Virus record (IMG/VR): IMGVR_UViG_3300046534_001355
Origin: a virus
Lineage: Duplodnaviria; Heunggongvirae; Uroviricota; Caudoviricetes
Strand: one strand, 5' to 3'
Length of the DNA: 21,933 nt
A program made the translations under genes and the position numbers. The notes beneath the pieces are model-generated. The model did no database searches. It was not told the origin of the DNA and saw only the letters and a program-made list of their open reading frames with translations. Of this stretch, positions 3,479-21,839 are shown piece by piece (the first letter of the stretch is position 1; every line of letters starts with the position of its first letter).

Positions 3479-3750
3479 GTATTCGTATTGAAATTGGCGA
3501 ACGTTATGTCGTTACCAGTGACAGCTTTCAGTTTATTCTCCACGAGAAAAAGAGAGCGGAAAGCGGTAAAAACGCCGGTCAGGAATGGCTGGCGGTGGTT
3601 GGTTATTACCCGAAATTAAGCCAGCTCGTTTCCGGCCTGATGCATCACGATATTCTTACCGGAAGCGCAAAGTCTTTTGCTGATTTAAACGCGCAGGTTG
3701 AGCAACTCAGCAAGCGTTGTTCAGAGGCTTTTGGCTCATATGGCCGTTAA
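3475..3750 (+). CDS. Hypothetical early-operon protein (P2 orf83 region)
   Basis: 91-aa ORF overlapping the start of A. Confidence 0.5.
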   Translation: MSIRIEIGERYVVTSDSFQFILHEKKRAESGKNAGQEWLAVVGYYPKLSQLVSGLMHHDILTGSAKSFADLNAQVEQLSKRCSEAFGSYGR

Positions 3751-6022
3751 AGCCTCCGGGCGTTTTGTCCCTCCGTCAGCATTTGCCGCAGGCACCGGTA
3801 AGACGTTTACCGGTGCTTATGCATGGAACGCGCCACGCGAGGCCGTCGGGCGCGAAAGACCCCTTACACGTGACGAGATGCGTCAGGTGCAAGGTGTTTT
3901 ATCCACGATTAACCGCCTGCCTTACTTTTTGCGCTCGCTGTTTACTTCACACTATGACTACATCCGGCGCAATAAAAGCCCGGTGCACGGGTTTTATTTC
4001 CTCACATCCACTTTTCAGCGTCGTTTATGGCCGCGCATTGAGCGTGTGAATCAGCGCCATGAAATGAACACCGACGCGTCGTTGCTGTTTCTGGCAGAGC
4101 GTGACCACTATGCGCGCCTGCCGGGAATGAATGACAAGGAGCTGAAAAAGTTTGCCGCCCGTATCTCATCGCAGCTTTTCATGATGTATGAGGAACTCAG
4201 CGATGCCTGGGTGGATGCACATGGCGAAAAAGAATCGCTGTTTACGGATGAGGCGCAGGCTCACCTCTATGGTCATGTTGCTGGCGCTGCACGTGCTTTC
4301 AATATTTCCCCGCTTTACTGGAAAAAATACCGTAAAGGACAGATGACCACGAGGCAGGCATATTCTGCCATTGCCCGTCTGTTTAACGATGAGTGGTGGA
4401 CTCATCAGCTCAAAGGCCAGCGTATGCGCTGGCATGAGGCGTTACTGATTGCTGTCGGGGAGGTCAATAAAGACCGTTCTCCTTATGCCAGTAAACATGC
4501 CATTCGTGATGTGCGTGCACGCCGCCAGGCAAATCTGGAATTTCTTAAATCGTGTGATCTCGAAAACAGGGAAACCGGCGAGCGCATCGACCTTATCAGT
4601 AAGGTGATGGGCAGTATTTCTAATCCTGAAATTCGCCGGATGGAGCTGATGAACACCATTGCCGGTATTGAGCGTTACGCCGCAGCAGAGGGTGATGTGG
4701 GGATGTTTATCACGCTGACCGCGCCGTCAAAGTATCACCCGACACGTCAGGTTGGAAAAGGCGAAAGTAAAACCGTCCAGCTAAATCACGGCTGGAACGA
4801 TGAGGCATTTAATCCAAAGGATGCGCAGCGTTATCTCTGCCGTATCTGGAGCCTGATGCGCACGGCATTCAAGGATAATGATTTACAGGTCTACGGTTTG
4901 CGTGTCGTCGAGCCACATCACGACGGAACGCCGCACTGGCATATGATGCTTTTTTGTAATCCGCGCCAGCGTAACCAGATTATCGAAATCATGCGTCGCT
5001 ATGCGCTCAAAGAGGATGGCGACGAAAGAGGAGCCGCGCGAAACCGTTTTCAGGCAAAACACCTTAATCGGGGCGGTGCTGCGGGGTATATCGCGAAATA
5101 CATCTCAAAAAACATCGACGGCTATGCACTGGATGGTCAGCTCGATAACGATACCGGCAGACCTCTGAAAGATACTGCCGCGGCTGTTACTGCATGGGCG
5201 TCAACGTGGCGCATCCCGCAATTTAAAACGGTTGGTCTGCCGACAATGGGGGCTTACCGTGAACTACGCAAATTGCCTCGCGGCGTCAGCATTGCTGATG
5301 AGTTTGACGAACGCGTCGAGGCTGCACGCGCTGCCGCAGACAGTGGCGATTTTGCGTTGTATATCAGTGCGCAGGGTGGGGCAAATGTTCCGCGCGATTG
5401 CCAGACTGTCAGAGTCGCCCGTAGCCCGTCGGATGAAGTTAACGAGTACGAGGAAGAAGTCGAGAGAGTGGTCGGCATTTACGCGCCGCATCTCGGCGCG
5501 CGTCATATTCATATCACCAGAACGACGGACTGGCGCATTGTGCCGAAAGTTCCGGTCGTGGAGCCTTTGACTTTAAAAAGCGGCATCGCCGCGCCTCGGA
5601 GTCCTGTCAATAACTGTGGAAAGCTCACCGGTGGTGATACTTCGTTATCGGCTCCCACACCGACTGAGCATGCTGCAGCGGTGTTAAATTTTATAGATGA
5701 AGGGATTCTAAGTTGGACCGAGCCAGGCATTATGAAGGTACTTAGAGACTTATTGAGTAATGAACTGAAATGCAGTAATCGTTCACAGCAGAGCTTTACT
5801 CCTTTCAATGGTCGAAGCTACTTTCCTGCCCCATCCGCCCGGTTGACAAGGCAGGAGAGAAAGACTATCCCGAAAATTAAGGTTCTTCTTGCACAAAGTG
5901 ACATTCAGGCTAGTTATTGGGAGCTTGAAGCTCTCGCTCGCGGAGCTGTTTTGGATTTTGGGCATAAGCGTTTTAAATTTGATACCGATATCGACTTTTT
6001 TGACAGACAGCGTGAGTGGTAG
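3740..6022 (+). CDS. A: Replication initiation protein A (rolling-circle nickase), divergent AT-rich 3' end
   Basis: Start taken at MAVKASGRF (ATG 3740), not the track start 3698. HUH-like motif PHWHMMLF and two-tyrosine motif GYIAKYISK seen. The last ~110 codons (from about 5690) are clearly more AT-rich than the rest. Confidence 0.88.
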   Translation: MAVKASGRFVPPSAFAAGTGKTFTGAYAWNAPREAVGRERPLTRDEMRQVQGVLSTINRLPYFLRSLFTSHYDYIRRNKSPVHGFYFLTSTFQRRLWPRIERVNQRHEMNTDASLLFLAERDHYARLPGMNDKELKKFAARISSQLFMMYEELSDAWVDAHGEKESLFTDEAQAHLYGHVAGAARAFNISPLYWKKYRKGQMTTRQAYSAIARLFNDEWWTHQLKGQRMRWHEALLIAVGEVNKDRSPYASKHAIRDVRARRQANLEFLKSCDLENRETGERIDLISKVMGSISNPEIRRMELMNTIAGIERYAAAEGDVGMFITLTAPSKYHPTRQVGKGESKTVQLNHGWNDEAFNPKDAQRYLCRIWSLMRTAFKDNDLQVYGLRVVEPHHDGTPHWHMMLFCNPRQRNQIIEIMRRYALKEDGDERGAARNRFQAKHLNRGGAAGYIAKYISKNIDGYALDGQLDNDTGRPLKDTAAAVTAWASTWRIPQFKTVGLPTMGAYRELRKLPRGVSIADEFDERVEAARAAADSGDFALYISAQGGANVPRDCQTVRVARSPSDEVNEYEEEVERVVGIYAPHLGARHIHITRTTDWRIVPKVPVVEPLTLKSGIAAPRSPVNNCGKLTGGDTSLSAPTPTEHAAAVLNFIDEGILSWTEPGIMKVLRDLLSNELKCSNRSQQSFTPFNGRSYFPAPSARLTRQERKTIPKIKVLLAQSDIQASYWELEALARGAVLDFGHKRFKFDTDIDFFDRQREW

Positions 6023-6110
6023 TTGAAAAAACGGTTGAACGGGGTAACAATATGTTATTGTTGAGGAATTGTTTGTTATGGTTTAATTTTTATACACGGC
6101 AGAAAAGCAT

Positions 6111-7334
6111 ATGAGCATGGTTGAATGGATAAGCCACGAGAAAAAAGATAGCCTGATACTATTTGTACATGGATTAAATGGTGGTTTGGAAACATGGAAC
6201 TTTAATAAAGAAATTTCATTTCCAAAACTATTAGCAGAAGATGAAGATATTAGCAACGTATTTGATATTGCATGTTTCAATTATTTTACTAAATTCACAC
6301 AAACGTATGCTAAAACGTCAGGATTCTTGGCTCGTATTTTCTTTAAGAAAAATAAGTTAGAGAGAAATTTACCAACTGATGAAATAGCTGAGTTATTGTA
6401 TACTGAGATTAGAGTAACACTAAGTGATTACTCTCGAATTATAATAATCGCCCATAGTATGGGGGGGTTAATATCAAAAAATCTAATTCTAAAAAAAGTT
6501 GAGCATGAGGAACAATCTAATATAATTGGATTCATTTCGTTAGCAGTCCCTCACTTTGGTGCTAAATTAGCGAATATAACTTCAATGGTATCTTCAAATG
6601 CTCAGTTAGTAGATCTTGGATTGTTAAGTGAAGCGACTGATACATTGAATAGGCGCTGGATAAATTGTAGCAAAAAACTTCCTATCACTAGATATGTTTA
6701 TGGATCTCATGACACTATAGTCGATAAAAAAAGCGCATTACCGATGGATAGTGAACGACATAACTCAATTGCAGTTAATGAAGGGCATAGCTCAATTTGC
6801 AAGCCCGAAAATAGCTCGTCTACAGTGTTTGTTGCGGTAAAGCAATTTATTCAGCAGATAAATTTAGAAGCACCCAAGAAGATTTGCGTTGAGCGTTTTT
6901 CTGATGATAAACAATATGATAATGAGTATTTCGTCTTAAAAATGATTGTCGCAGATATACATCAGGATATCGCTCTGCATGCAAAGGAATATTATTATAA
7001 TGCTGAGCTTGCGAGAAATATTTTTACGAGTGATTACGATAGAAAACAACTTGGTCATTTGTATTCTAAAATAAGGGAGATTTACCAGGAAGAGTATGAG
7101 CAATACATTGCAAATTCAATTTCCCCAGATAAATTTATTGCTGCTGTTCATAGACGAATAACCCAGGAGGATAAGTCGTCGTTAGATTCTCTTATAAAAA
7201 GTTTGGAAACGATACATAAGAAAGGAATGTTGCATCAACTGGCTAACAAAAATGACAGGGATATTGTCTGGTCATCTGAAACCAGCGTAGAAACTTTGGA
7301 GCAATTACGGCGAGGTAATCATGAAGAAAAATAA
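6111..7334 (+). CDS. Lipase-like alpha/beta hydrolase fused to a C-terminal helical domain; candidate defence effector (LmuA-like position)
   Basis: FVHGLNGG oxyanion-hole-like motif; nucleophile elbow AHSMGG (Ser116, nt 6456-6458), identical to the Bacillus lipase A pentapeptide; later GSHDTIVD and EGHSSI supply candidate Asp/His. AT-rich; first gene of a 3-gene overlapping operon. Confidence 0.7.
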   Translation: MSMVEWISHEKKDSLILFVHGLNGGLETWNFNKEISFPKLLAEDEDISNVFDIACFNYFTKFTQTYAKTSGFLARIFFKKNKLERNLPTDEIAELLYTEIRVTLSDYSRIIIIAHSMGGLISKNLILKKVEHEEQSNIIGFISLAVPHFGAKLANITSMVSSNAQLVDLGLLSEATDTLNRRWINCSKKLPITRYVYGSHDTIVDKKSALPMDSERHNSIAVNEGHSSICKPENSSSTVFVAVKQFIQQINLEAPKKICVERFSDDKQYDNEYFVLKMIVADIHQDIALHAKEYYYNAELARNIFTSDYDRKQLGHLYSKIREIYQEEYEQYIANSISPDKFIAAVHRRITQEDKSSLDSLIKSLETIHKKGMLHQLANKNDRDIVWSSETSVETLEQLRRGNHEEK

Positions 7335-7833
7335 CTTGCCGTATATACCTCTTGATGAAGAGTATAGTTTGAATTTTGCTATGCTTGCCATTGCTATATC
7401 TATATTATCTCATAGCAAAAAAGGAGTGTTGTCATTAGATATTAATAAAATACAAATTTTTATGTATCTGATAAAAAATCCATCAAAAATTGATTGTGCT
7501 CTTACAGTTTCGGGGAAAAAGCCTGCTTGTGTCGAGTCCCAGTTAACTTATACAATAAAGAGTTTTTCATCAAATGTAGATATCTTATTCGACAATTCCA
7601 AAGTGAAATATCTTATAAAAATTATGTCATTGCGGGGATTGCTCTCAGCTGAGAAAAAAAATAATGAGAGTGTTAAATTATTTTTATCTGAAAAAGGTAA
7701 GGAATTTGCTAGCTCATTGACTGATGGATATTTTAAAGAAATAAAACGACTAGCCGAAGCATTGTTACCGCTACAAGCATTGCCTACCTCTAAGTTAAAC
7801 TCTGTTATAAACAAAGTCTTCAAGGAGAAATGA
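7321..7833 (+). CDS. Small middle-gene protein of the operon (LmuC-like position)
   Basis: 170-aa ORF overlapping the upstream stop by 14 nt and the downstream start by 4 nt (ATGA), implying translational coupling; no recognisable motifs. Confidence 0.55.
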   Translation: MKKNNLPYIPLDEEYSLNFAMLAIAISILSHSKKGVLSLDINKIQIFMYLIKNPSKIDCALTVSGKKPACVESQLTYTIKSFSSNVDILFDNSKVKYLIKIMSLRGLLSAEKKNNESVKLFLSEKGKEFASSLTDGYFKEIKRLAEALLPLQALPTSKLNSVINKVFKEK

Positions 7834-9800
7834 TGAAATCATATCTCAATATCAATAGTTTGATTCTTGTTGGCGTTCGTAAAAACTACGTCACTACTTT
7901 TTATAAAGGTCTCAATGTTATCTACGGAGACTCTGACACAGGTAAGTCAAGTATTCTGGAGTTTATTAATTATCTTTTAGGTGCTAGTTCTATAGATTTA
8001 GCAGATGAAATAAAAACATCAGTAAACTATGCTGCTCTTGAAGTAGTGATCAATGATACTGTATTCACAATCGTAAGAGATATCTATGATCATAAAAAAT
8101 CAATAGAAGTTTATCGTTGTAAGTTTGATGATTTACATAAACACTTTCCGAAAAAATACGCTCCTAATTATAGCCCCTTATCAAATGTTGATGGCGTTTT
8201 TTCGGAGTTTTTACTTGATAGTCTTAATTTTCCAAAAATTGAAATTAAGGTGTCTCCTTCTAAAGCACATTCACAGATGCGCAGGTTAAGCTTTAGAAAT
8301 ATATATAAATTTGTTTATGTAAGTCAGGATGATATTGGTAGTAAATCATTCTTACGATTGGAGGATTGGTCCCGTTACGCATTTACGAAAGAAGTTTTTA
8401 AATACATGTTCAATGTGTTGGATGAAAGCATCGCCAGACTCCAAGGTGAAATATCTGCAAAAAGTAGTTTAGTAACGGAACTAAATAAGAAGTATCAGAT
8501 AATATCTGAATTTCTTCGCGATACAGACTATGAAACAATTGAATCAATTGATGATGAGATTAATAGGATAGATCTTATTTTAGAAGAACTTGTTGCAGGT
8601 TTGTCTGCTCTCGATAAAAATATGAAAGCGGATTCCATGCAGTATACAGAATTGAAAGATGCCCACAATTTTATTTCGCTTAAATACAAGGAGTGCATAT
8701 TAAATATTAGCACGCTTGAGGATAAGATTGATAAATATTCGCGGTTAAAAAATGACTATGATAATGATATTGAAAAACTCAAAGCGATTAAAACAGCAAA
8801 TTCTCGCATTGGTGTATTGGATAAGGAAGTATTTTCCTGTCCGATCTGTGATAGCCACATTAAAATAGATGATTCCGATTTTCCATTTGAAATTTCATCA
8901 GAAAAAGATCTTAATGAAGAGTTGAATTCACTTAGTCGACGTAGACGAAATATTAATGACATGATCTCAGAAATGTCATTTAAATTAAAAAAAGAATCTG
9001 GTTATAAAAAAGAATTAGATGAACAACTTGACGAGTTGAGAGAGTTAATTGACGAAGAAAGCCAGTCAATGATTACACCATTCTTGACTCAGAGAGATTT
9101 TTATATTAAAGAGATATCAAAAAACGAGAAGGTTAGGGAGCAGTTAGTAAAAGATTTGAAGGTTAGAAACCAGCAAGAGGAACTGCTTGAAAAGCATCAG
9201 GTACTGATAAAAGATATTGAAACATTAACTGAACGCTTGGATGCGTTAAAGAAAAACGCACCTAGTATGGAAGGCATTTTACAAGGTTTAGGTGATAGAT
9301 TTAGTCAGTATTTGAAGGGTATTAATATCAAAAACAGAACGGGGATAAAAATCTCTGAAAGATATTACACCCCTGTTATAAGAGGAAAGGAATATTTTAA
9401 AATAACGTCCGGAGGTTTGAGAACTATTTCTTCTATTGGGTATCTTTTGTCTATTCTTGATTATGCAATAGACCATAATGTTAACCATCCTTTACTTTTG
9501 ATATTTGATACGGTTGGTAAATATTTAGGGAAACAGACCAAGGAAAAATACTCAAAAGAAACTCTTGCAGTCGAGGATGACCTTGAGGGGATGTCAGACC
9601 CGATGAAGTATCAAAATATTTATGAGCAACTATTGAATACAGTTCAAAAAGCAGAAAGAAAAAATGTTCCGTGCCAGATTATATTAGTTGATAATGATTT
9701 GCCTAATTCGTTTTCTACTGGTGAACTTTCGAATATTATCGCTCATTATAGCTCGGTTGGTGAGGATGGTTTGCCTTTAGGTTTAATTGATGACCTTTAA
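7830..9800 (+). CDS. SMC/Rad50-like ABC ATPase with coiled-coil and CxxC hook (LmuB-like)
   Basis: Walker A GDSDTGKSS (res 33-40); long charged heptad-rich middle; CPIC at res 337-340, the midpoint; ABC signature-like TSGGLRT (~res 526); Walker B-like LLLIFDT (~res 555-561). Confidence 0.75.
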   Translation: MMKSYLNINSLILVGVRKNYVTTFYKGLNVIYGDSDTGKSSILEFINYLLGASSIDLADEIKTSVNYAALEVVINDTVFTIVRDIYDHKKSIEVYRCKFDDLHKHFPKKYAPNYSPLSNVDGVFSEFLLDSLNFPKIEIKVSPSKAHSQMRRLSFRNIYKFVYVSQDDIGSKSFLRLEDWSRYAFTKEVFKYMFNVLDESIARLQGEISAKSSLVTELNKKYQIISEFLRDTDYETIESIDDEINRIDLILEELVAGLSALDKNMKADSMQYTELKDAHNFISLKYKECILNISTLEDKIDKYSRLKNDYDNDIEKLKAIKTANSRIGVLDKEVFSCPICDSHIKIDDSDFPFEISSEKDLNEELNSLSRRRRNINDMISEMSFKLKKESGYKKELDEQLDELRELIDEESQSMITPFLTQRDFYIKEISKNEKVREQLVKDLKVRNQQEELLEKHQVLIKDIETLTERLDALKKNAPSMEGILQGLGDRFSQYLKGINIKNRTGIKISERYYTPVIRGKEYFKITSGGLRTISSIGYLLSILDYAIDHNVNHPLLLIFDTVGKYLGKQTKEKYSKETLAVEDDLEGMSDPMKYQNIYEQLLNTVQKAERKNVPCQIILVDNDLPNSFSTGELSNIIAHYSSVGEDGLPLGLIDDL

Positions 9801-9928
9801 TACTATACATGCATTTTTTTGAATTAGATTGCATGTGGATAATGAGTCTATTTAGTGAAGGGAAGGTTTTGTGTGACGTGACTTTCGATAAAATTCAACC
9901 GCATTAAAACCGCCCCATGAAGCGGGCG

Positions 9929-9947
9929 GGCGAGGCGGGGAAAGCAC
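9929..9947. other. cos: cos site (19-nt P2 cohesive-end sequence GGCGAGGCGGGGAAAGCAC)
   Basis: Exact occurrence of the 19-nt P2 cohesive-end sequence, between the cargo operon and Q, as in the P2 prophage map; flanked by the GT-rich packaging region. Confidence 0.75.
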
Positions 9948-10088
9948 TGCGCGCTGGCGGTGGTGCTGATTTTATTTTTTAGCGTCTCAGCGCGTCGTGA
10001 TGGCGTTTAGATTGTGCGCCGGGGCGTTGGTGTGTCTGCGGGGTGTTTTGTGCGGTGGTGAGCGTGTGAGGGCGTGATGACGGGGTGT

Positions 10089-10110
10089 AAAAAAGCCGCC
10101 CGCAGGCGGC
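10089..10110 (-). terminator. Rho-independent terminator downstream of Q
   Basis: Stem GCCGCC / GGCGGC with loop CGCA; on the minus-strand transcript the hairpin is followed by UUUUUU. Lies 6 bp past the Q stop. Confidence 0.6.
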
Positions 10111-10115
10111 GATGT

Positions 10116-11090
10116 TCAGCCGTTGTCAGTGTCCAGTGAGTAGTTTTTAAAGCGGATGACCTCCTGACCGAGCCAGCCGTTTATCTCACGGATCCTGTCC
10201 TGTAACGGGATAAGCTCATTGCGGACAAAGACCTTTGCCACTTTCTCAATATCACCCAGCGACCCGACGTTCTCCGGCTTGCCGCCCATCAACTGAAAGG
10301 GGATGCGGTGCGCGTCCAGCAGGTCTGCGGCACTGGCTTTTTTGATATTAAAAAAATCGTCCTTCGTCGCCACTTCACTGAGCGGGATAATTTTAATGCC
10401 GTCGGCTTTTCCCTGTGGGGCATAGAGAAACAGGTTTTTAAAGTTGTTGCGGCCTTTCGACTTCACCATGTTTTCGCGAAGCATTTCGATATCGTTGCGA
10501 TCCTGCACGGCATCAGTGACGTACATGATGTATCCGGCATGTGCGCCGTTTTCGTAATACTTGCGGCGGAACAGCGTGGCCGACTCATTCAGCCAGGCAG
10601 AGTTAAGGGCGCTGAGATATTCCGGCAGGCCGTACAGCTCCTGATTAATATCGGGCTCCAGCAGGTGAAACACGGAACCGGGCGCGAAGGCTGTCGGTTC
10701 GTTGAAGGACGGCACCCACCAGTAAACATCCTCCTCCACGCCACGGCGGGTATATTTTGCCGGTGAGGTTTCCAGTCTGATGACCTTACCGGTGGTGCTG
10801 TAACGCTTTTCCAGAAACGCATTACCGAACACCAGAAAATCCAGCACAAAGCGGCTGAAATCCTGCTGGGAAAGTCGCCGAAAATCGCCAGTGTGCATCA
10901 GTTCGGTCTGTCGGAAGAAACCCGGAAAGACGGTAAGAAAATTGATTATCCGGCGCGTCCTCTGCTCGGCTTTACCGGTGAGGATGTGCAGATGATTGAA
11001 GAGATTATCCTGGCTCACCTTGAGCGTTAGTTTTATCCAGGCAGAGGCTGATGCGCAATTAAACATTGAGCGGCCATGCTGGTCGCTCAA
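10116..11090 (-). pseudogene. Q: Portal protein Q, apparently 5'-truncated remnant
   Basis: Minus-strand ORF with C-terminus next to cos as in P2. Only 324 codons (P2 Q about 344), begins with TTG inside a 12-bp-arm hairpin, and the upstream partner P (terminase) is absent. Confidence 0.6.
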
Positions 11091-11095
11091 TGTTT
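11061..11095. repeat. Inverted repeat (12-bp arms AAACATTGAGCG / CGCTCAATGTTT, 11-nt loop) at the Q-side deletion junction
   Basis: Perfect 12-bp arms read directly from the sequence; overlaps the putative Q start and lies just 3' of the membrane-protein gene stop. Confidence 0.7.
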
Positions 11096-11101
11096 AGAGG
11101 C

Positions 11102-11887
11102 TTATGAGTGATTTTTATTTGATGCTTTGTATTCTACAACCTTCTTATTGGCGTAAAGGAATTTTGTATATGACAGGAATATAACCAGACCTGAAATGAA
11201 ATAGATGAGGGATATTATTAATAATGCTTTTTTTTGGCTGTTATTATCTTTAATTTCCTGACTTAACCATTCCGAGTCCTCCTCGTTTAGCTGTAAGAGC
11301 TTATTGCAGGCGATCTCAGGAAGTGTGTCTTTTATAAATATGTTTCGTAGCCTCTTGCAATCGGCAAGGCTATAAGTTTTATTGAATTCAACTGTTTTAT
11401 TGTTGAAGGATAAAAGAACTTTGTCACTATAAACATAGTACATCATATTTTTATATGGTATGCCTATGGCATCTCTTACTATAGCGGATTGTTTGTTGTG
11501 TATATAACATGCGAAGAGAATATAAATAATGCTGGACAGAATTACAATTATTGTTTTAATTATGTGTGGTGGTTTTGTTATGTCACCCCAGAAGCGAGTA
11601 AGAAAAAAATACGATGTTTTTAGTTTTCCATCAATCAGCCCCTGCTGTATCATTCTCACATCTTCGATGCCTGATACATTGATTCCGTTAATTATTTTAA
11701 ATAGTTGAATGTCGCGCCATTTTTTGTCGAGCATTTTTAACTTTCTGTCTGAATACTCAAAATTGAAATGATGTGCAATAAACCTCATAAGATTACTTTT
11801 ACCAAAGGTAATAAATGTTAATGCTATTAATAAAAATAGATACAAAGAGATAAACCACCACGCATTAGTCACATTATCACTGAACAT
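11102..11887 (-). CDS. AT-rich orphan membrane protein (3 predicted TM helices), unknown function
   Basis: 261-aa ORF with hydrophobic segments at about res 10-28, 107-127 and 222-241; GGAG 7-8 nt upstream of ATG; composition unlike the flanking backbone. Confidence 0.6.
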   Translation of the reverse strand: MFSDNVTNAWWFISLYLFLLIALTFITFGKSNLMRFIAHHFNFEYSDRKLKMLDKKWRDIQLFKIINGINVSGIEDVRMIQQGLIDGKLKTSYFFLTRFWGDITKPPHIIKTIIVILSSIIYILFACYIHNKQSAIVRDAIGIPYKNMMYYVYSDKVLLSFNNKTVEFNKTYSLADCKRLRNIFIKDTLPEIACNKLLQLNEEDSEWLSQEIKDNNSQKKALLIISLIYFISGLVIFLSYTKFLYANKKVVEYKASNKNHS

Positions 11888-11970
11888 TACGCTCTCCTCG
11901 AATGTTGTATGGTCGTTCTACAAATGAATCCAGATAGCATAACTTTTATATATTGTGCAATCTCACACGC

Positions 11971-12606
11971 ATGAACACTCTCGCAAATATTCAGGAACTC
12001 GCGCGCGCACTGCGCAACATGATTCGTACCGGCCTTGTCGTCGAAACCAACCTTAAAGCCGGTCGCTGCCGTGTGCAGACCGGTGGCATGTGCACTGACT
12101 GGCTTCAGTGGCTGACCCATCGTGCCGGACGTTCGCGCACATGGTGGGCACCTTCCGTGGGGGAACAGGTGCTGATTCTGGCTGTGGGCGGTGAACTCGA
12201 CACGGCGTTCGTTCTGCCGGGGATTTATTCCGGCGATAACCCCGCGCCGTCTGCGTCGGCGGATGCCCTGCATATCCGTTTCCCTGACGGGGCGGTGATT
12301 GAGTATGAACCCGAAACCAGTGCACTCACGGTAAGCGGAATTAAAACGGCCAGCGTGACGGCTTCTGATTCTGTTACTGCCACGGTGCCGGTGGTCATGG
12401 TGAAAGCATCAACCCGCGTCACCCTGGACACACCGGAGGTGGTTTGCACCAACAGGCTGATTACCGGCACGCTGGAAGTGCAGAAGGGCGGGACGATGCG
12501 CGGCAACATTGAACACACCGGCGGTGAACTCTCATCAAACGGTAAGGTACTGCATACCCATAAACACCCCGGCGACAGCGGCGGCACAACCGGGAGCCCT
12601 CTATGA
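11971..12606 (+). CDS. V: Baseplate spike protein V (211 aa)
   Basis: Start at MNTLANIQELARALRNMIRTG (ATG 11971); length and sequence match P2 gpV as I recall it. Confidence 0.9.
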   Translation: MNTLANIQELARALRNMIRTGLVVETNLKAGRCRVQTGGMCTDWLQWLTHRAGRSRTWWAPSVGEQVLILAVGGELDTAFVLPGIYSGDNPAPSASADALHIRFPDGAVIEYEPETSALTVSGIKTASVTASDSVTATVPVVMVKASTRVTLDTPEVVCTNRLITGTLEVQKGGTMRGNIEHTGGELSSNGKVLHTHKHPGDSGGTTGSPL

Positions 12607-17466: not shown

Positions 17467-18814
<1,348 letters not shown>

Positions 18815-21059: not shown

Positions 21060-21839
21060 ATGGCAATGCCGCGCAAACTCAAGTTAATGAACGTCTTTCT
21101 GAACGGCTACAGCTATCAGGGCGTTGCAAAGTCCGTCACGCTGCCAAAACTGACCCGTAAGCTCGAAAACTATCGCGGTGCGGGGATGAACGGCAGCGCA
21201 CCGGTAGACCTCGGCCTTGATGACGATGCGCTGTCAATGGAGTGGTCGCTCGGTGGATTCCCGGATTCGGTTATCTGGGAGCTTTACGCCGCAACCGGTG
21301 TGGATGCCGTGCCGATTCGTTTTGCAGGCTCTTACCAGCGCGACGATACAGGCGTAACGGCAAAGTGGTTACACACCAAAGACCCGAAACCGCAAAAGCA
21401 GAAGGTAAAACTGAAACGCAAAAAGAAAGAGAAACACCTGCGCGCACTGGAGCACCCGAACGCGAAACCGGTCAGGCAGAAGAAAGCGCCTAAAGTACCG
21501 GAAGCGCGTGAAGGTGAATACATGGCCGGTGAGGCTGACAACGTTTTTGCCCTGACCACGGTATATGCCACGAAAGCGCAGGCCATGCGCGCCGCTCAGG
21601 CGAAGTGGGATAAGCTGCAACGGGGCGTTGCGGAGTTCTCCATCAGTCTGGCTACCGGTCGTGCTGATATTTACACGGAAACACCGGTTAAAGTGTCAGG
21701 CTTTAAGCGCGTCATAGACGAGCAGGACTGGACAATCACTAAGGTGACACATTTTCTGAATAATAGCGGCTTCACGACGTCCCTGGAGCTTGAGGTCAGG
21801 CTTTCTGATGTGGAGTACGAAACAGAAGATGATGAGTGA
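21060..21839 (+). pseudogene. Chimeric ORF: tail tube FII N-terminal 98 codons fused in frame to the C-terminal part of tail protein D
   Basis: Residues 1-98 (MAMPRKLKLMNVFLNGYSYQ...SYQRDDTG) match FII; from VTAKWLHTKDPKPQKQ... to ...LELEVRLSDVEYETEDDE resembles the C-terminal third of gpD; junction at about nt 21353; ogr follows directly, as after D in P2. Confidence 0.6.

Follow-up and report, generated by a model that had tools for sequence, protein, structure and literature searches.

A CPIC motif at the predicted coiled-coil apex of an E. coli B prophage LmuB is the probable zinc hook of a lipase-type Lamassu system

Within a window of 21,933 nucleotides, the whole stretch of viral DNA that was analyzed, we identified a CxxC motif in LmuB that very probably (about 85%) constitutes the zinc hook of this protein. 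LmuB is the sensor ATPase of an abortive-infection system of the Lamassu family, of the short ("type II," ABC-3C) kind and with a lipase effector. The motif is encoded by TGT CCG ATC TGT at positions 8838–8849 of the plus strand, in frame with an open reading frame at 7830–9800 (656 aa). Its product, C337-P338-I339-C340, is the sole CxxC in a chain that has five cysteines and falls 0.51 of the way along that chain. The same motif, at the same positions and residues, had been picked out by an earlier sequence-only reading, which proposed a probable Rad50-style hook for dimerization or for the tethering of DNA ends. The gene begins with ATGATG, and because the RefSeq start is the second ATG (7833, yielding 655 aa) and an AGGAG sequence lies just 2 nt 5′ of the first ATG, the cysteines may also be numbered C336 and C339.

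The ATPase gene belongs to a three-gene Lamassu (ABC-3C) operon of E. coli B, which lies in a defective, P2-like prophage between gene A and the cos/portal region. The cargo site is bordered upstream by the P2-type replication endonuclease gene A (3698–6022, plus strand; Pfam Phage_GPA, E 7e-124, with the same assignment in RefSeq) and downstream by a truncated phage portal gene (10116–11090, minus strand; Pfam Phage_portal, E 2.7e-13), which RefSeq treats as a pseudogene that lacks its N terminus. The effector gene, lmuA (6111–7334, plus strand, 407 aa), matches PF05057 (E 2.8e-09), the CTD8 family PF20284 (E 9.2e-36), and the PADLOC model PDLC03851 (E 1.3e-108). Its product combines an N-terminal α/β hydrolase of the DUF676/PGAP1 type ("lipase"), with an AHS116MGG nucleophile elbow and H226 as the likely catalytic histidine, with a C-terminal CTD8 domain at residues 265–389. 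The middle gene, lmuC (7321–7833, plus strand, 170 aa), encodes an ABC-3C middle component 4 protein (PF20290 MC4, E 4.5e-27; PADLOC PDLC03869, E 2.6e-52). Both genes adjoin and overlap upstream of lmuB, and RefSeq names their products ABC-three component system proteins. The Lamassu identity of this system had gone unrecognized in the sequence-only reading. A tblastn search with LmuB against 50,697 phage records gave no match, and no deposited intact P2-like phage with the cassette was found.

The product of lmuB (7830–9800, plus strand) is an SMC/Rad50-like ABC ATPase that RefSeq lists as an AAA family ATPase (WP_000844440.1). It is matched over residues 2–656 of 656 by the PADLOC LmuB model PDLC03862 (E 1.2e-233), and eleven more LmuB models match it too. 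In a Foldseek comparison with the PDB, the best matches were solved LmuB chains (E 1e-21 to 1e-14), including 9uxh_F (E 1.2e-21), 9hqx_B (E 1.3e-18), 9hqu_A (E 1.3e-17), and 9nyg_B (E 7.7e-16), with Rad50 and SMC proteins ranking behind. A single-sequence phmmer search of the PDB matched Salmonella LmuB (9hqu_A) only marginally (E 0.054), and the LmuB family profile was needed to reach a whole-chain E value of 2.5e-11 against the same protein. With high posterior probability, this profile pairs "spCPiCds" with the "sdCPmCgs" segment of 9hqu_A. By its full-length family profile, its operon with LmuA and LmuC, its split ABC head, and its fold, the protein is a LmuB.

Membership in Rad50/SbcC proper was considered and rejected. 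No family match to an Mre11/SbcD-type end-processing partner was found in the operon, where the neighbors are the DUF676 hydrolase-CTD8 and MC4 proteins, and the Walker B motif is not the canonical hhhhD-E. The scores of LmuB also fall below the curated cut-offs of Pfam SMC_N (21.3 bits versus 40) and of NCBIfam Rad50_Sulf (22.6 bits versus 1000) and SMC_prok_A (25 versus 729). A sub-profile covering 105 positions of the hook region matched 1L8D (E 0.009) and 6ZFF (E 0.04), with generic CPxC zinc knuckles (BRCA1 RING, PF0385, LysW, and TFIIE) scoring at least as well as Rad50 hooks and ranking ahead of them, and the best Rad50 stretch that it matched was coiled coil rather than CxxC. Because the sub-profile matches generic CPxC knuckles, the local sequence by itself denotes a "zinc knuckle" and not specifically a "Rad50 hook," and we set the sub-profile aside as proof of specific Rad50-hook homology.

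An AF2 monomer model of LmuB (pLDDT 86.4 overall) places the motif at the apex of an antiparallel coiled coil, as the sequence-only reading had anticipated and had proposed to check by structure prediction. Residues 1–195 form a globular head lobe with strands. These are followed by an ascending arm (residues 199–326; 8424–8807) composed of helices 199–230, 237–264, and 270–326, by an apex loop (residues 327–357; 8808–8900), and by a descending arm (residues 358–498; 8901–9323) composed of helices 358–476 and 480–498, all encoded on the plus strand. DSSP analysis of the model assigns a short β-hairpin (strands 335–336 and 343–344) around the CxxC in the apex loop, whose pLDDT of 60–66 is the lowest of the model. 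The coiled coil is about 19 nm long and comprises about 270 residues plus the 31-residue apex loop, rather than the approximately 450 heptad-rich residues first estimated. The ascending arm is broken at residues 231–236 and 265–269; in our analysis it may fold at these breaks, in the way described for the coiled coil of Salmonella LmuB (bioRxiv 10.1101/2025.03.14.643221).

With the two arms inserted between the head halves, LmuB has the split ABC head characteristic of its family. The ATPase motifs are distributed as originally described, with Walker A in the N-terminal part and the signature and Walker B motifs in the C-terminal part. Walker A (G33-D-S-D-T-G-K39-S40; 7926–7949, plus strand) has invariant G33, D34, T37, G38, K39, and S40, whereas the ABC signature motif (T526-S-G-G-L-R-T532; 9405–9425, plus strand) is invariant from S527 to T532 and at least 98% conserved at T526. 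Walker B (L555-L-L-I-F-D560; 9492–9512, plus strand) is followed by T561 in place of the catalytic glutamate and thus reads D-T, not D-E, with both D560 and T561 invariant. The motif has been reported as hhhhD[Q/S/T/E] for short Lamassu systems in PMC12663957. In this arrangement, the N- and C-terminal halves of each LmuB fold into one ABC head, and the ascending (~130 residues) and descending (~140 residues) helices pair as an antiparallel coiled coil that presents the CxxC in a β-hairpin at its tip.

Both cysteines are retained across the family. All 114 full-length homologs (43–88% identity) have C337, P338, and C340, and a mid-length CxxC is present at 0.43–0.60 of the length in all 111 of the more distant full-length representatives (50% identity) that were compared. 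A functionless CxxC might arise by chance, given that 3.0% of 100,000 shuffles of LmuB's own residues contain one somewhere in the chain, but only 0.3% of these shuffles place one within 33 residues of the midpoint. The conservation is more decisive than the shuffle figures and refutes such an accidental origin, the probability of which we consider negligible.

A second possibility is that the motif is a metal-free structural or redox element that forms a disulfide or a tight turn, while contacts made by the coiled coil and LmuC, rather than zinc, dimerize LmuB. CPxC sequences are similar to the active sites of thiol-disulfide oxidoreductases, but LmuB is cytoplasmic, and disulfides are disfavored in the cytoplasm. 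Moreover, C-P-x-C is absolutely invariant inside a loop that is otherwise variable, the 20 residues after CPIC being the least conserved block of LmuB (mean top-residue frequency of 0.32 among the 114 homologs). More distant relatives carry a second CxxC 13–24 residues downstream, which is the classic four-Cys zinc-ribbon spacing, and the best matches to the hook sub-profile are true zinc-coordinating knuckles and Rad50 hooks. In favor of a metal-free motif, none of the published cryo-EM maps of LmuB resolves zinc itself, their local resolution being too low (bioRxiv 10.1101/2025.03.14.643221), and the Vibrio protein dimerizes without any CxxC. Weighing these points together, we regard a metal-free role as quite unlikely. 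The hook is nevertheless not indispensable for the Lamassu mechanism generally, because V. cholerae LmuB works without any CxxC (PMC12663957).

A motif described as "CPxCG or similar" is carried by many LmuB proteins (PMC10586767). The CPIC of E. coli B LmuB is homologous to the hook of Salmonella LmuB, which has a zinc-hook dimerization domain whose function is required for phage defense and whose two copies lie close to each other in the complex solved by cryo-EM (bioRxiv 10.1101/2025.03.14.643221). H343 is found in only 13 of the 114 homologs, and therefore no third or fourth conserved zinc ligand is available in cis; an intramolecular site using H343 or D341 was rejected on this ground. 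Each chain of this clade supplies a single CxxC and no further conserved ligand close to it, and a tetrahedral zinc site would therefore have to be completed, as in Rad50, by the CxxC of another protomer. Since such a site would be common to two protomers, the hook would be the head-distal dimerization point of an LmuB2 dimer. The invariant cysteine pair, the AF2 apex position, the alignment with CPMC of 9hqu_A, and the Foldseek matches thus support the Rad50-style dimerization hook that was first suggested.

The other function that the sequence-only reading offered, DNA-end tethering, fares less well. It corresponds to an inter-complex arrangement, as has been proposed for eukaryotic Mre11-Rad50, in which LmuB dimers of different complexes would share zinc and thereby bridge two DNA ends or cluster Lamassu complexes. 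The motif and its apex position do match Rad50, a single CxxC per chain does call for a partner chain, and cooperative LmuA activation through local concentration has been discussed in the literature. However, in all the solved Lamassu complexes described, the hooks that meet belong to two LmuB subunits of one compact particle, either LmuA1-LmuB2-LmuC1 or LmuA1-LmuB2, with their coiled coils folded (bioRxiv 10.1101/2025.03.14.643221; PMC12663957). The LmuB coiled coil is also short at about 19 nm, and the operon provides no end-processing partner of the Mre11/SbcD type. We therefore consider tethering between complexes very unlikely.

If the hook acts within one particle, the E. coli B complex would be expected to contain LmuB, LmuA, and LmuC in a 2:1:1 ratio and to hold LmuA sequestered. 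In the solved structures, LmuC and the C-terminal domain of LmuA dock near the hook motifs (bioRxiv 10.1101/2025.03.14.643221; PMC12663957). Once DNA ends or replication intermediates are bound and ATP drives the heads to engage, the folded coiled coils would open, and this opening would release LmuA to oligomerize through its C-terminal domain, here CTD8, and become active. LmuA proteins of the lipase type with CTD8 or CTD9 have been predicted in the literature to form cyclic oligomers. The target of LmuA in the E. coli B system would probably be membrane lipid.

A different use of the same zinc site can be envisaged for the single-CxxC clade, in which the inter-protomer site would serve as a regulated latch and not simply hold the dimer together passively. 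Loss of zinc, oxidation, or mechanical strain from head engagement would open the hook reversibly, which would free the hook-proximal platform of LmuA-CTD8 and LmuC and release the lipase. Relatives with two CxxC motifs, and hence a self-contained four-Cys ribbon in each chain, or with none, as in Vibrio, would use another release geometry. We assign this proposal a low probability. It is compatible with the occurrence of zero, one, or two CxxC copies and with the unresolved zinc density in the published LmuB maps.

LmuB proteins are already known to have a zinc hook, from a 2023 review of SMC-based immunity and from the 2025 Lamassu structure papers, including one on an E. coli lipase-type system. 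Because the hook had been described for the family, the finding made here, though correct, is ordinary. What the locus adds is that an apparently intact Lamassu operon of the lipase type is present, within a defective P2-like prophage, in E. coli B, the classical T-phage host from which laboratory strains in wide use descend. This operon would offer a convenient native model for zinc binding by the hook and for the activation of a non-nuclease LmuA.

Among known systems, LmuB of Salmonella enterica (PDB 9hqu/9hqx; Li et al.) shares family, architecture, and size with the E. coli B protein (660 versus 656 aa), carries one CPxC, which aligns with CPIC, and is encoded in the same operon order, LmuA-LmuC-LmuB. 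The two proteins are only about 15% identical and differ at the hook (CPMCG versus CPICD) and in Walker B (D-Q versus D-T). The Salmonella effector is a Cap4-type nuclease, whereas that of E. coli B is of the lipase type, and the CTD and MC families of the two systems differ because of this. Ec-Lipase, an E. coli system of the short Lamassu clade H (Haudiquet et al., PNAS 2025; PMC12663957), likewise combines a lipase LmuA, LmuC, and an LmuB with a CxxC hook, and in experiments it protects against lambda-vir. The mutants described there are LmuB K42A and LmuA H215A, for which the E. coli B counterparts are Walker A K39 (K38 in RefSeq numbering) and the likely catalytic H226; going by this residue numbering, Ec-Lipase LmuB is probably a different protein. 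The accessible part of the study contains no hook mutation.

Rad50/SbcC proteins (e.g., the P. furiosus hook, PDB 1L8D) resemble LmuB in two respects: an antiparallel, intramolecular coiled coil emerges from an ABC ATPase head and bears a CxxC at its tip, and each chain has just one such motif, so that zinc would have to be common to two chains. In contrast, the LmuB coiled coil is far shorter (~270 residues in total), its partners are LmuA and LmuC rather than Mre11/SbcD, and its Walker B lacks the catalytic glutamate. The output of Lamassu is the release of a toxic effector, whereas that of Rad50/SbcC is local DNA-end processing. Finally, the short Lamassu LmuB of V. cholerae, DdmC (PDB 9ny5, 9uxh), is the best Foldseek match; its coiled coil is kinked in the same way, and LmuC and the C-terminal domain of LmuA sit at the apex (PMC12663957). 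The V. cholerae protein has lost the CxxC entirely, whereas the family of E. coli B LmuB keeps it invariantly.

The CPIC motif reported by the sequence-only reading was confirmed at 8838-8849, where tgt ccg atc tgt encodes C337-P338-I339-C340 in the frame of an ORF of 656 aa (7830-9800). It encodes LmuB, a component of a Lamassu (ABC-three-component) defense system, and it is matched over residues 2-656 by the PADLOC LmuB model PDLC03862 (E 1.2e-233). The lmuB start region (7823-7835) reads AGGAGAA ATG ATG, with the Shine-Dalgarno sequence AGGAG 2 nt before the first ATG (7830), which overlaps the lmuC stop codon (7831-7833). Note that RefSeq places the start at the second ATG (7833), so the CPIC cysteines may be numbered C336 and C339. 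LmuB has five cysteines in total. When its residues were shuffled 100,000 times, CxxC arose anywhere in 3.0% of the shuffled sequences and no more than 33 residues from the midpoint in 0.3%. The mid-chain position of CPIC alone is already unusual, and the decisive evidence is conservation.

A search of a 5.8-billion-protein collection yielded 262 homologs, from which conservation was assessed by aligning the query with 113 full-length homologs (n = 114; 43-88% identity). All 114 sequences share C337, P338, and C340; they have I, V, or L at position 339 and mostly D or E at position 341. The 20-residue block directly after CPIC is the least conserved in the whole of LmuB. H343 occurs in just 13 of the 114 sequences, and therefore a third or fourth conserved ligand is absent from the same LmuB chain. 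When 1.84 billion cluster representatives were searched exhaustively with a profile, 3,212 relatives were recovered. Among the best 150 of these, all 111 full-length proteins carry CxxC at 0.43-0.60 of their length; the nearer relatives (45 including the query) have one CPxC per chain, and more distant representatives (P0167-P0268) have two CxxC motifs 13-24 residues apart. The latter spacing, at the apex, is that of a four-Cys zinc ribbon per chain, and the two groups would differ in metal-site architecture, with a site shared between chains in the former and an intra-chain site in the latter. These counts agree with the zero, one, or two CxxC copies published for short LmuB (PMC12663957).

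The placement of the motif at the tip of a coiled coil, also proposed from the sequence, was borne out by an AlphaFold2 monomer model built from the 114-sequence alignment (mean pLDDT 86.4). In this model, the globular ABC head comprises residues 1-195 together with about 500-656, ascending helices span 199-230, 237-264, and 270-326, and descending helices span 358-476 and 480-498. The two arms are joined by a connecting loop (327-357) in which short strands at 335-336 and 343-344 flank CPIC, and thus the motif lies at the coiled-coil apex in a knuckle-like hairpin. The lowest pLDDT values, 60-66, occur at the apex, which is unsurprising for a monomer modeled with neither metal nor partner. 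The coiled coil comprises approximately 270 residues rather than the about 450 heptad-rich residues originally proposed, and at 0.15 nm per residue we estimate that the modeled arm would be roughly 19 nm long. When the model was compared with the PDB by using Foldseek, the top matches were LmuB chains, led by Vibrio cholerae 9uxh_F (1.2e-21) and including Salmonella enterica 9hqx/9hqu (about 1e-18), Bacillus subtilis YydD (9a6c), 9nyg, and 9ux7, with Rad50 and then SMC and JetC ranking after them. Assignment as Rad50 proper was rejected, as curated Rad50/SMC models match far below their cut-offs; LmuB is related to Rad50 but is not itself a Rad50.

Upstream of lmuB, lmuC (7321-7833) overlaps it by four bases and matches Pfam MC4 (E 4.5e-27) and PADLOC LmuC (E 2.6e-52). 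The first gene, lmuA (6111-7334; PADLOC LmuA E 1.3e-108), encodes a protein with a DUF676/PGAP1-type alpha/beta hydrolase at its N-terminus and CTD8 (E 9.2e-36) as its C-terminal domain. By inspection, LmuA carries a nucleophile elbow, AHS116MGG, with D201 and H226 as candidate catalytic triad partners of S116. The LmuB Walker B motif at 9492-9512 is LLLIFD560-T561 (residues 555-561), in which Thr561 replaces the catalytic Glu and is invariant in the 114 homologs. This sequence agrees with the hhhhD[Q/S/T/E] consensus published for short Lamassu (PMC12663957). In a crude motif scan, D-T dominates the single-CxxC clade and D-S/N/H are found elsewhere. The D-T motif suggests that LmuB binds ATP but hydrolyzes it slowly or not at all.

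On the best-supported reading, the single CxxC motifs of two LmuB protomers would jointly hold one zinc ion and so secure the dimer at its head-distal end. Near the hook, the coiled coil and LmuC, via MC4, would hold the CTD8 domain of one LmuA, so that the lipase stays monomeric and inactive. The folded arms would open in response to DNA ends or replication intermediates together with ATP-dependent head engagement, freeing LmuA, which would then oligomerize and act on a putative lipid target. DNA-end tethering between complexes, the other role suggested for the hook, is unsupported: the particles seen in published structures are compact assemblies (1:2:1 or 1:2) whose hooks meet internally.

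The operon resides in a defective P2-like prophage that adjoins yegR and the gat operon. The operon region (6000-10100) matches E. coli B strains at 100% identity, and elsewhere the window differs from the strain B record NZ_CP115178 by one SNP (15824) and by indels at a CTGG repeat and near 18307. The prophage comprises integrase, C/cox, gene A, the Lamassu operon, a truncated portal gene (10116-11090, without its N-terminus) followed by a virion morphogenesis fragment, baseplate and tail-fiber genes, and a truncated tail tube/gpD ORF (21060-21839) in which the N-terminal part of the tail tube is fused to the C-terminal part of gpD; it lacks genes for the head, terminase, and lysis. The prophage is mostly 51-61% GC, with 47% just upstream of the Lamassu island, whereas the operon (AT-rich island 6000-9500) is 31-36% GC versus 47-56% in flanking phage genes, as expected for cargo. 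Between lmuB and the portal gene lies GGCGAGGCGGGGAAAGCAC (9929-9947), which we take to match the P2 cos (cohesive-end) sequence. In P2, tin and old are located between gene A and cos; if the match holds, the Lamassu cassette occupies this cargo position. The operon is present at at least 80% coverage in 96 of 5,426 complete E. coli genomes, and the cassette was not found by tblastn of LmuB against 50,697 phage records.

Two other regions of the prophage were observed. A perfect (CTGG)29 repeat (18542-18657) lies in a minus-strand gene region between the tail-fiber and tail-sheath genes that RefSeq annotates in strain B as a glycosyltransferase family 2 protein. The repeat runs to 35 copies in NZ_CP115178, which also carries 46 additional bases near 18307. 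In the window the frame is broken into three ORFs (17467-18162, 18249-18539, and 18536-18814), suggesting a cargo gene prone to slippage, and possibly phase-variable, at the second P2 cargo site. Positions 11000-12000 (33-36% GC) form another AT-rich island, located at the junction where the head and lysis genes have been deleted. It holds a minus-strand ORF of 261 aa (11102-11887) and an ORF of 128 aa (11887-12273), neither of which is significantly matched in Pfam, NCBIfam, or PADLOC.

The LmuB family profile matches S. enterica LmuB (9hqu_A, E 2.5e-11), aligning 'spCPiCds' with 'sdCPmCgs' at maximal posterior probability, and the two motifs are already paired in a single-sequence alignment. 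The Salmonella protein consists of an ABC head, a coiled coil, and a zinc-hook dimerization domain, and its functional hook is needed for defense (Li et al., bioRxiv 10.1101/2025.03.14.643221). In the DNA-free complex the two hooks are closely juxtaposed, with LmuC and the LmuA C-terminal domain nearby, and zinc is not discernible at the local resolution (bioRxiv 10.1101/2025.03.14.643221); likewise, CQYC hooks are juxtaposed in a Bacillus type I structure in which zinc is not resolvable (10.1101/2025.06.23.660979). The apex position, the invariant C, P, and C residues, and homology to the functionally required Salmonella hook support the initial interpretation of CPIC as a zinc hook. Moreover, 'CPxCG or similar' was noted in many LmuB proteins in a 2023 review (PMC10586767), and an E. 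coli Lamassu that carries a zinc hook, 'Ec-Lipase', was validated by Haudiquet et al. (PMC12663957). The mutants named there (LmuB K42A and LmuA H215A) differ in numbering from K39 and H226 in the window, so Ec-Lipase is probably a relative of this operon and not the same operon. The zinc hook of LmuB has been described before in this known defense family, including its E. coli lipase subtype.
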